UHGV virus genome: UHGV-0017337 | Reading direction: 5' to 3' (one strand) | DNA length: 43,119 bases | Source of the DNA: a virus | Shown here: one piece after another, positions 299-2,155 of the stretch | Layout of the letters: each line of letters begins with the position of its first letter | Position numbering within the stretch: the first letter of the stretch is position 1 | The notes under the pieces: generated by a model | Told to the model about the DNA's origin: nothing | What the model saw: the letters and a program-made list of their open reading frames with translations, nothing else | Databases searched by the model: none | Program-made: the position numbers and the translations under genes

Positions 299-2155
299 AT
301 GTCAGATGCTTACGTTCACGATATTGAAAACTACCCTAATGTTTTTCTGTTCGGTGCTATTCACGCGTTAACTGAAACACCTTATATTTTTGAGATTTCA
401 CATCGTCGCGATGATCGTCAGGCTTTTTACTTCTTCACGGAATATTTGCGTGAACATCGTGCTGAAGAAGTTGGTTATAACAATCTGGGTTACGACTATC
501 CTGTTCAGCATTCTATTTTGAACAACATCATGTATATCACCAACGCAGACATTTATAAAAAAGGTGATTCGATAATTAACGCTGGTGATGAAAATCGTTT
601 TGCTCATATGGTGTGGGAAAAAGACTGGATAGTTCCCCAGCTTGATTTATATAAAATTCATCATTTCGACAATCAGGCAAAACGAACAAGTCTGAAAACA
701 CTTGAATTCAATATGAGAATGGAAAACATTGAAGACCTCCCGTTTACACCAGGGACTTATTTAACCGATTCTCAAATTGATACGCTTCGTCAATATCTGA
801 TACACGATTTAAAAGCGACTTTGATGTTTTATAAACACAGTAAAAAGCTAATCGATTTTCGTCGTGAACTTTCTGCTAAATACGGTCGTAATTTCATGAA
901 CCATAATGACACGAAAATCGGTAAAGACTATTTCATTATGGAACTTGAAAAATCAGGTATTCAATGTTTCGAACCGGGTAGCAGAAAACCACGGCAGACG
1001 CACAGACCATCAATCGCATTGAACAGTGTGATTTTCCCTTATGTTCGTTTTGAACAGCCTGAATTTAATCGTGTTCTTAACTGGTTACGTCAACAGGTCA
1101 TCACTGAAACAAAAGGTGTATTCACAGATTTAAGCGCAGACATTAACGGGTTCTCGTTTGATTTTGGTACGGGTGGTATCCACGGGTCTATTGAATCTCA
1201 AACTGTCAGGTCCACTGAAAATTATGTGATCGTCGATCTGGACGTTGCCAGTTTTTACCCGAACCTTGCGATCAGTAATGAACTCTATCCGGCACATCTT
1301 GGAAAGCAATTTTGCACCATTTATAAAAATGTTTATGACATGCGTTCCAGTTACCCGAAAGGTACACCAGAAAACGCAATGTTAAAACTGGCGTTAAACG
1401 GTGTGTATGGTGACAGTAATAACGTATACAGTCCGTTCTACGATCCTGCTTACACAATGGCTATTACGATTAACGGACAGTTACTTTTGTGCATGTTGGC
1501 TGAAGAACTTCTGAAAATCCCTGGTTTGTCCATGATTCAGGCTAACACAGATGGTCTTACGGTTTACGTACCACGAGTGTTTACCGGACAAGTAGAACAG
1601 GTTCGTCACGCGTGGGAAAAATTAACCAGACTCCAGCTTGAAGAAGCGATTTATGACGTGATGTTTATCCGCGATGTAAATAACTACATCGCTGTTTACG
1701 AAGGTGGTAAGAAAGTTAAACGTAAAGGTGCTTATTGTCACAGTGTTGATCTGGGTTGGCATCAAAACCACAGTATGCAGGTTGTCGCAAAAGCGGCTGA
1801 GGCAGCACTGGTACACAATAAAGATATTCGTGATTTTATAACATCACACGAAGATATTCACGATTTTATGTTAGTGACGAAAGTACCGCGTAACAGCAAA
1901 TTACTATGGGGTGATAAACAGGTTCAGAACATTACCCGTTATTACGTCAGTACAGATGGTGCACCGTTGACAAAAGTCATGCCACCGCTGACAAAATCAC
2001 TGAAACTGAACCCTGACGCGCCTGAACGCCGCATGTCAGTGTGTAAAGGTTGGTTGACCACTGAGTGCAACGACATGAAACGTTTTAACCGGGCAACGCT
2101 CAATTATGATTTTTACATCAAAGAAGCTGAAAAACTCGTTGCACCACTTCGGTAA
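299..2155 (+). CDS. DNA polymerase, family-B-type, with N-terminal 3'-5' exonuclease-like motifs
   Basis: 618 aa; exo-like motifs VHDIE (DxE), YNNLGYDY, YLIHD (Yx3D); polymerase motifs DLDVASFYPN (Dx2SLYPS-like), KLALNGVYGDS (Kx3NSxYG-like), NTDGL (DTDS-like). Confidence 0.6.
   Translation: MSDAYVHDIENYPNVFLFGAIHALTETPYIFEISHRRDDRQAFYFFTEYLREHRAEEVGYNNLGYDYPVQHSILNNIMYITNADIYKKGDSIINAGDENRFAHMVWEKDWIVPQLDLYKIHHFDNQAKRTSLKTLEFNMRMENIEDLPFTPGTYLTDSQIDTLRQYLIHDLKATLMFYKHSKKLIDFRRELSAKYGRNFMNHNDTKIGKDYFIMELEKSGIQCFEPGSRKPRQTHRPSIALNSVIFPYVRFEQPEFNRVLNWLRQQVITETKGVFTDLSADINGFSFDFGTGGIHGSIESQTVRSTENYVIVDLDVASFYPNLAISNELYPAHLGKQFCTIYKNVYDMRSSYPKGTPENAMLKLALNGVYGDSNNVYSPFYDPAYTMAITINGQLLLCMLAEELLKIPGLSMIQANTDGLTVYVPRVFTGQVEQVRHAWEKLTRLQLEEAIYDVMFIRDVNNYIAVYEGGKKVKRKGAYCHSVDLGWHQNHSMQVVAKAAEAALVHNKDIRDFITSHEDIHDFMLVTKVPRNSKLLWGDKQVQNITRYYVSTDGAPLTKVMPPLTKSLKLNPDAPERRMSVCKGWLTTECNDMKRFNRATLNYDFYIKEAEKLVAPLR

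Follow-up and report, generated by a model that had tools for sequence, protein, structure and literature searches.

A compact family-B DNA polymerase, probably replicative and primer-dependent, in the genome of a Sashavirus-type siphophage

Biochemistry for the compact family-B DNA polymerases (PolBs) of phages comes from a single, distantly related member, GP55 of lactococcal phage 1706, a "four-in-one" helicase-primase-PolB replicase of the HelPrimPolB group (PMC12205980). In GP55, the PolB domain elongates primers efficiently and also acts as a 3'-5' exonuclease, no de novo synthesis is seen once the primase domain is inactivated, and strand displacement relies on the fused helicase domain (PMC12205980). 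For the PolBs of crAss-like phages, a literature search for biochemistry found none. In both the crAss-like and the HelPrimPolB groups, motif C and the KxY motif differ profoundly from those of other PolBs, and enzymes with a single Asp in motif C, such as piPolB, are fully active (PMC7544198). Sashavirus and Nonanavirus were counted among PolB-encoding phages by Yutin et al. 2024 (PMC11348598), and the supplement of Kazlauskas et al. 2020 labels a 9NA homolog "PolBmain", apart from the cluster of protein-primed PolBs and piPolBs (PMC7544198). Here we describe the polymerase gene at positions 299 to 2155 of UHGV virus genome UHGV-0017337, of which the whole 43,119-nucleotide stretch analyzed is called the window. 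We consider it very likely that this gene encodes the replicative, compact, proofreading and primer-dependent PolB of a Sashavirus-type siphophage.

In the open reading frame (ORF) listing, the gene is an ATG-started frame of 618 amino acids (aa), with coordinates and length exactly as an earlier note on this DNA had given them. Its classification needed a family profile and a structure model, because the single sequence had no match in Pfam-A at E <= 1 and only a sub-threshold match to Pol II in NCBIfam. The protein matches phrog_1252, "DNA polymerase", at E 1.7e-215. The profile was built from 61 aligned sequences, the query and 60 homologs at 42-52% identity, and this alignment is also the basis of the motif conservation counts given below. 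Searched against the PDB, it matched 81 distinct sequences, and all 60 listed were family-B polymerases. The best matches were the archaeal enzymes KOD, 9N and Tgo (E 3.7e-7 to 1e-5), followed by African swine fever virus (ASFV) polymerase, Pol alpha, RB69, Pol II and Pol epsilon. With hhalign, the family profile aligned to E. coli Pol II across motifs A to C (probability 92.5%, E 5e-7). Within the alignment, PF00136 was touched by four of the 61 members and PF10108 by 18.

An AlphaFold2 model built from the same alignment had a mean predicted local distance difference test score (pLDDT) of 96.5 and a predicted template-modeling score (pTM) of 0.92. Foldseek comparison of this model with the PDB put archaeal PolBs, Pol alpha and Pol II on top (E about 1e-14), with RB69 also among the best structural matches, and the C-terminal 141 residues, when modeled alone, returned PolB thumbs as their best match. 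As modeled, the protein has a PolB fold, with a DEDDy 3'-5' exonuclease from residue 8 onwards, a palm, short fingers of two helices and a thumb. Profile, Foldseek, AlphaFold2 model and conserved motifs agree: 299..2155 encodes a family-B DNA polymerase whose proofreading domain is intact. The earlier note's call of a compact family-B enzyme is thereby borne out; neither membership in a different polymerase family nor coincidence of the motifs, the two outcomes it had named as fatal to that call, was indicated by profile, structure or conservation. The gene and its parts are as follows.

299..2155, plus strand: family-B DNA polymerase gene, 618 aa (ORF listing, profile, model and structure comparison)
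Residues 1-195, approximately: exonuclease domain
Residues 196-336 and 375-476, approximately: linker and palm
Residues 337-374, approximately: short fingers
Residues 478-618, approximately: thumb
320..328, plus strand: ExoI, D8-I-E10; D in 60/61 sequences, E in 60/61
479..496, plus strand: ExoII, N61-N-L-G-Y-D66; N61 in 60/61, D66 in 61/61
794..808, plus strand: ExoIII, Y166-L-I-H-D170; Y in 60/61, D in 60/61
1241..1261, plus strand: motif A, D315-V-A-S318-F-Y320-P321, followed by N (resembling Dx2SLYPS), with the catalytic Asp and the steric-gate Tyr; D315 and Y320 each in 61/61
1385..1411, plus strand: motif B, K363-LAL-N367-G-V-Y370-G371 (resembling Kx3NSxYG), in the second fingers helix
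1538..1555, plus strand: motif C variant, Q414-A-N416-T417-D418-G419; Q, N, T, D and G each in 61/61
1679..1687, plus strand: N461-N-Y463, family-specific stand-in for the PolB KxY motif; invariant

All six residues of the DEDDy exonuclease motifs (D8/E10, N61/D66 and Y166/D170) are at least 98% conserved. More generally, conservation is complete or reaches at least 90% at the motif residues of the exonuclease and of motifs A and B, and K363 and G371 of motif B are invariant, as are D315 and Y320 of motif A. Motifs A and B also align with the DxxSLYPS and motif B counterparts of KOD, 9N and E. coli Pol II. Given this alignment and the family-wide conservation, the exonuclease motifs and motifs A and B are not there by chance. 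The DxE and Yx3D motifs listed in the earlier note, and those resembling Dx2SLYPS and Kx3NSxYG, were all found, but the DTDS listed with them is actually QxNTDG. Only one of the two aspartates of a YxDTDS motif C is present, both in our alignment and in wider homologs: the second, catalytic Asp is retained as D418, and the first is replaced by the invariant N416. In the same alignments KxY is absent after motif C, and the invariant N461-N-Y463 stands in its place. Both catalytic aspartates are kept in the family (D315 in motif A, D418 in motif C), and so are the steric-gate Y320 and the lysine of motif B, K363.

These departures have close counterparts elsewhere. QxNTDG is invariant in homologs from crAss-like phages, Nonagvirus and a Leuconostoc phage, and in an alignment with the polymerases of crAssphage cr10_1, JenP2 and Leuconostoc phage 1-A4 the N-terminal ExoI, NTDG, N-x-Y, K474 and the motif spacing are invariant. 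The cr10_1 enzyme (gp16) is 28% identical over 99% of the query (tblastn E 3e-60). The crAss-like PolBs (EpsilonN-like clade, Kazlauskas et al. 2020) have in common with the polymerase studied here an N-terminal ExoI of the form YDIE.xxN.F, the invariant NTDG motif C and N-x-Y for KxY; in cr10_1, 50 residues separate motifs A and B and 52 separate motifs B and C, much like the 48 and 53 seen here. The crAss-like phages differ from the window phage in host range and virion type. Similarity to the PolB domain of GP55 extends over residues 8-561 (hhalign probability 98.8%, E 6.8e-17; identity about 23%), and that domain, too, begins with YDIExFPN and has a motif C (KTDS) in which the first Asp is missing. 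GP55 joins the polymerase to a superfamily 3 (SF3) helicase and an AEP primase in one protein, whereas Sashavirus encodes the polymerase apart from them, and its primase is an HBD-bearing one of the NrS-1 type. The polymerase thus has every trait of the compact phage PolB group related to the crAss-like and HelPrimPolB enzymes that we looked for: ExoI, QxNTDG, NxY, and similarity to cr10_1 and GP55. This assignment was made from the alignment, tblastn and hhalign, the 9NA/Sasha branch of the published tree being known by its "PolBmain" label alone. We suggest that Asn for the first motif C Asp and NNY for KxY are characteristic of a very large, phage-specific group of PolBs to which the crAss-like enzymes belong, and that both changes would be compatible with activity. 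Candidates for taking the place of the first motif C Asp and of the KxY Lys are D313 and K474. Through homology, the GP55 results also favor a dependence on primers and on a helicase in the wider group.

The size of the protein is numerically in the range of phi29-type polymerases, as the earlier note had pointed out, but the architecture is different. In phi29 gp2, motifs A and B lie 134 residues apart and motifs B and C 73, owing to the TPR1 and TPR2 (terminal-protein region) insertions; the corresponding distances are 48 and 53 residues here and 74 and 52 in E. coli Pol II. In the AlphaFold2 model, the chain runs from the motif A strand (309-316) and helix (319-326) through a short loop into two helices of the fingers (337-351 and 357-374, the latter bearing motif B), and from there into a canonical helix of the palm (383-404) and the hairpin of motif C (411-425). 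The short motif spacing and this secondary structure leave no room for either terminal-protein region: TPR1 is absent, the 48 residues between motifs A and B forming only a loop and two short helices in the model, and TPR2 is absent from between motifs B and C. Looking for these two regions had been proposed in the earlier note, and by motif spacing and model neither is present. Profile comparison found no similarity between the family and phi29 gp2 either (hhalign probability 0.24%), phi29 polymerase was not among the 60 listed of the 81 PDB profile matches, and PF03175, the phi29-type Pfam family, was touched by only one of the 61 aligned members (E 0.052). In addition, phi29 polymerase has just 120 residues after motif C compared with 203 here, where the thumb is longer, and it works with a terminal protein, for which no gene is annotated in Bas82 and Sasha, close relatives of the window phage. 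On sequence and model, therefore, the polymerase is not phi29-like.

Its small size is instead accounted for by the lack of an N-terminal domain, short fingers and a somewhat shorter thumb. ExoI lies at the extreme N-terminus, starting at residue 8, and so leaves no space for an N-terminal domain, whereas in E. coli Pol II ExoI is at residue 156; the A-to-B distance given above is likewise shorter than in Pol II. Overall, the polymerase is about 150-300 residues shorter than KOD, 9N, Tgo, Pol II, RB69 gp43 and Pol alpha, and it differs from RNA/DNA-primed PolBs in having NTDG for DTDS and NNY for KxY and in falling below the Pfam PF00136 threshold. The earlier note considered this size unusual for family B. 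For phages that is not so, since tblastn found compact PolBs of the same type in 969 of 50,697 phage records. The homologs come from phages of Klebsiella, Vibrio, Edwardsiella, Rheinheimera, Flavobacterium, Pseudomonas, Rhodobacter, Enterococcus and Leuconostoc, as well as from Nonagvirus and crAss-like phages such as cr10_1. A HMMER search of 1.84 billion 50%-identity representatives yielded 4,850 clusters at E <= 1e-3, 2,068 of them at E <= 1e-30; this 50%-clustered library was the source of the diversity sampled here, a word-indexed homolog search having given only 99%-identical proteins. The enzyme, though compact elsewhere, seems to have insertion hot spots near query residues 270-280 and about 565: at these sites many of the homologs have an extra stretch of about 50 to >300 aa, with total lengths of up to 950 aa. 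A homing endonuclease interrupts the polymerase gene of some phages, and Flavobacterium phages Fpv2 and Fpv20 were noted in this connection.

The polymerase itself is already known. The gene is 97% identical in nucleotide sequence to the annotated "DNA polymerase" of KarinMuster_Bas82 (an Escherichia phage), of Sasha, Sergei and Solent (Salmonella phages) and of other Sashaviruses. The window, too, shows 97% identity to Sashavirus genomes (Bas82, Sasha). The Bas82 protein, XPK41782.1, is 99% identical, and the other annotated orthologues (Sasha gp62, APU92818.1; 9NA PolB, UniRef50_A0A060D1M7) show no difference of substance. Public records label identical or near-identical proteins "DNA polymerase" or "DNA polymerase family B", and the enzyme is counted as a PolB in the two published surveys cited above. 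As a 99%-identity orthologue of annotated polymerases, from a family already counted in surveys, it has little discovery value. However, the compact phage PolB group spans thousands of clusters, including those of crAss-like gut phages, yet has no solved structure or Pfam model, and structural or enzymological studies could reasonably be directed at a PolB that is small, monomeric and proofreading and whose NTDG active site is invariant.

Complete relatives also supply what the window lacks. The earlier note remarked that no helicase or primase is visible, and by synteny with annotated relatives this is true of the window, but it is a boundary artifact: both lie just off the left edge. The window starts inside the single-stranded DNA-binding protein (SSB) gene immediately upstream of the polymerase, and its right end, with the large terminase, RdgC and small terminase, reaches about 52.4 kb of Bas82. 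Seen by synteny with Bas82, the window ends therefore leave out a segment of roughly 14 kb that bears the primase and helicases. Contigs with a 100%-identical polymerase all end about 1.2 kb upstream, probably through an assembly break at the 30-bp repeat of the SSB gene, and the upstream context was for this reason read from complete genomes in which the gene is 97% identical. The features concerned are these.

1..218, plus strand: 3' end of the upstream gene for a Gp2.5-like ssDNA-binding/annealing protein (megablast of window positions 1-320 onto Sasha, Bas82 and others)
1..77: perfect 30-bp tandem repeat, 2.6 copies, inside the Gp2.5-like SSB gene; the window starts within it
259..278, plus strand: GC-rich hairpin with a 7-bp stem, after the SSB-like gene and before the start codon of the polymerase, where the Sasha annotation has a terminator
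Bas82 11562..13916, minus strand, off-window: "DNA primase" (Bas82 gp74), a homolog of the NrS-1 PrimPol-helicase

The Bas82 orthologue of the Gp2.5-like SSB matches phrog_7011, and its gene has 9.7 perfect copies of the 30-bp repeat (Bas82 19489..19778), which encodes a 10-aa repeat linker of the SSB/annealing protein. From its sequence, the hairpin at 259..278 is a candidate for a weak terminator or attenuator, its weak T-tract making it at best a leaky terminator. Moving away from the polymerase in Bas82 and Sasha, the Gp2.5-like SSB is followed by a DUF2800/PD-(D/E)XK nuclease and a hypothetical protein. Farther upstream, and divergently transcribed, are a 553-aa superfamily 2 (SF2) helicase with ResIII/DEAD/Helicase_C domains, a DEDDh exonuclease and the 784-aa "DNA primase". 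The last of these combines NrS-1 polymerase HBD, D5_N and DUF5906 (SF3 helicase) domains, and in the PDB it matches the primase-helicase of NrS-1 (7ola, E 2.8e-34). In relatives the PrimPol/SF3 helicase and the SF2 helicase are thus 3-8.5 kb upstream of the polymerase, the PrimPol at about 6-8.5 kb. Inspection of the genes upstream, another check that had been proposed, consequently revealed both a primase and helicases, and together with the missing terminal-protein regions and the negligible phi29 profile score they speak against the earlier note's hint of phi29-like or otherwise unconventional priming. When replication partners appear to be missing at the edge of a window, complete relatives should be checked. 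At the other end, the earlier note's description of a terminase-packaged phage holds, as terminase genes are in the window; besides these and RdgC, the window also has a portal gene. Bas82 was deposited as a circular assembly, and 9NA-like relatives are regarded, on a second-hand account, as circularly permuted (PMC8273493).

We suggest the following scheme for replication in this phage. The PrimPol/SF3 helicase would unwind and prime the DNA, and the PolB would extend the 3'-OH primers made by the phage's own NrS-1-type PrimPol, with proofreading. As it has no TPR2, the PolB should depend on a phage helicase for unwinding, and this could be supplied either by the SF3 PrimPol-helicase or by the neighboring SF2 helicase. 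The Gp2.5-like SSB would coat ssDNA, including the displaced strand, and the concatemeric products would then be packaged by the terminase. Several points weigh against this picture. The first motif C Asp and KxY are missing and the single sequence has no significant Pfam-A or NCBIfam match, so that catalytic details could differ from those of textbook PolBs. The primase and helicase genes were seen in the 97%-identical relatives, not in the window or in the contigs with identical protein, and a processivity factor was not identified. Every mechanistic step beyond the fold and the motifs is a suggestion from sequence, and the primers may be RNA or DNA.

Two ways of starting DNA synthesis without a nucleic acid primer made by a primase both fit poorly. 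Initiation from a terminal protein at linear genome ends, as in phi29, would need TPR1 and TPR2, for which the 48- and 53-residue spacings (134 and 73 in phi29) and a model with two short fingers helices and a palm helix leave no space; hhalign gives phi29 gp2 a mere 0.24%, and no phi29 polymerase is among the listed PDB profile matches. Moreover, the Bas82 and Sasha annotations are without a terminal protein, the relatives assemble as circles or are regarded as circularly permuted and carry terminases, and a dedicated primase is encoded in them. We therefore give this reading almost no credence. De novo synthesis by a primer-independent, piPolB-like enzyme that needs no primase is also very improbable, even though piPolBs too lack the first motif C Asp (PMC7544198). 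The piPolBs group with the protein-primed PolBs (PMC7544198), whereas the 9NA member has its cluster affinity with PolBmain and the family has no profile similarity to phi29. Nor is there a pipolin context, the surroundings being those of a lytic phage replication module with its own PrimPol-helicase, and the related PolB domain of GP55 cannot start de novo without its primase domain.

It could also be argued that the PolB is a repair or translesion enzyme, or catalytically impaired, and that the NrS-1-like PrimPol is the true replicase. The NrS-1 PrimPol is itself the replicative polymerase in its own phage (PMC8718748), the first motif C Asp and the KxY Lys are missing here, and archaeal B2 PolBs with a single motif C Asp are weak translesion enzymes (PMC7544198). 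Against this, the other catalytic residues and the exonuclease residues are invariant over thousands of clusters, which argues for strong purifying selection on an active proofreading enzyme, and both piPolB and GP55 (KTDS) are efficient polymerases with a single-Asp motif C. The PolB is, in addition, the only canonical DNA polymerase annotated in Bas82 and Sasha, and its gene has the SSB on one side and the remainder of the replication module on the other. We consider a non-replicative role improbable, and a replicative, primer-dependent PolB remains our preferred reading. A separate question is what its primers are made of. The NrS-1 PrimPol initiates exclusively with deoxynucleoside triphosphates (dNTPs) (PMC8718748), and since the partner primase is homologous to it, this PolB clade might work in a replisome without RNA primers, which we regard as rather unlikely. 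If the Sashavirus primase were likewise restricted to dNTPs, the polymerase would be specialized for taking over short DNA primers, and if such a hand-off took place, the altered primer-terminus motifs NNY and NTDG could reflect it. In Sashavirus an NrS-1-like PrimPol-helicase coexists with a separate PolB, while the NrS-1 enzyme is the replicase of its own phage.

Around the polymerase, the window, Bas82 and Sasha share a common gene order: Gp2.5-like SSB, polymerase, hypothetical protein, NinX, a deoxyribosyltransferase-like protein and Dam. The first gene after the polymerase is the following.

2195..2731, plus strand: conserved 178-aa ORF directly downstream of and co-oriented with the polymerase (phrog_19205, no Pfam match)

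This ORF possibly belongs to the polymerase operon, and by position alone its product is a candidate polymerase accessory factor. Two further genes of the same operon encode a DUF4406/DUF7768 protein that is nucleoside 2-deoxyribosyltransferase-like in PHROGs (3034..3417, plus strand) and a Dam-type N6-adenine methyltransferase (3293..3931, plus strand), and this pair is a possible DNA-modification module.

Elsewhere in the window, a remnant of an E. coli-type SSB gene lies between tail fiber and tail protein genes (7516..7965, minus strand). Compared with its 130-aa counterpart in Bas82, already truncated at the N-terminus, the window copy is interrupted by two in-frame stop codons, and the 70-aa ORF that is left (7654..7866) lacks the acidic DDIPF tail; the gene is likely a pseudogene in decay. 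Two ORFs, at 14735..15838 and 31913..32788 (both plus strand), have DUF723, zinc-ribbon and T5orf172/MUG113 domains and are homing-endonuclease-like. Both sit on the opposite strand inside the tail and head/portal gene blocks.

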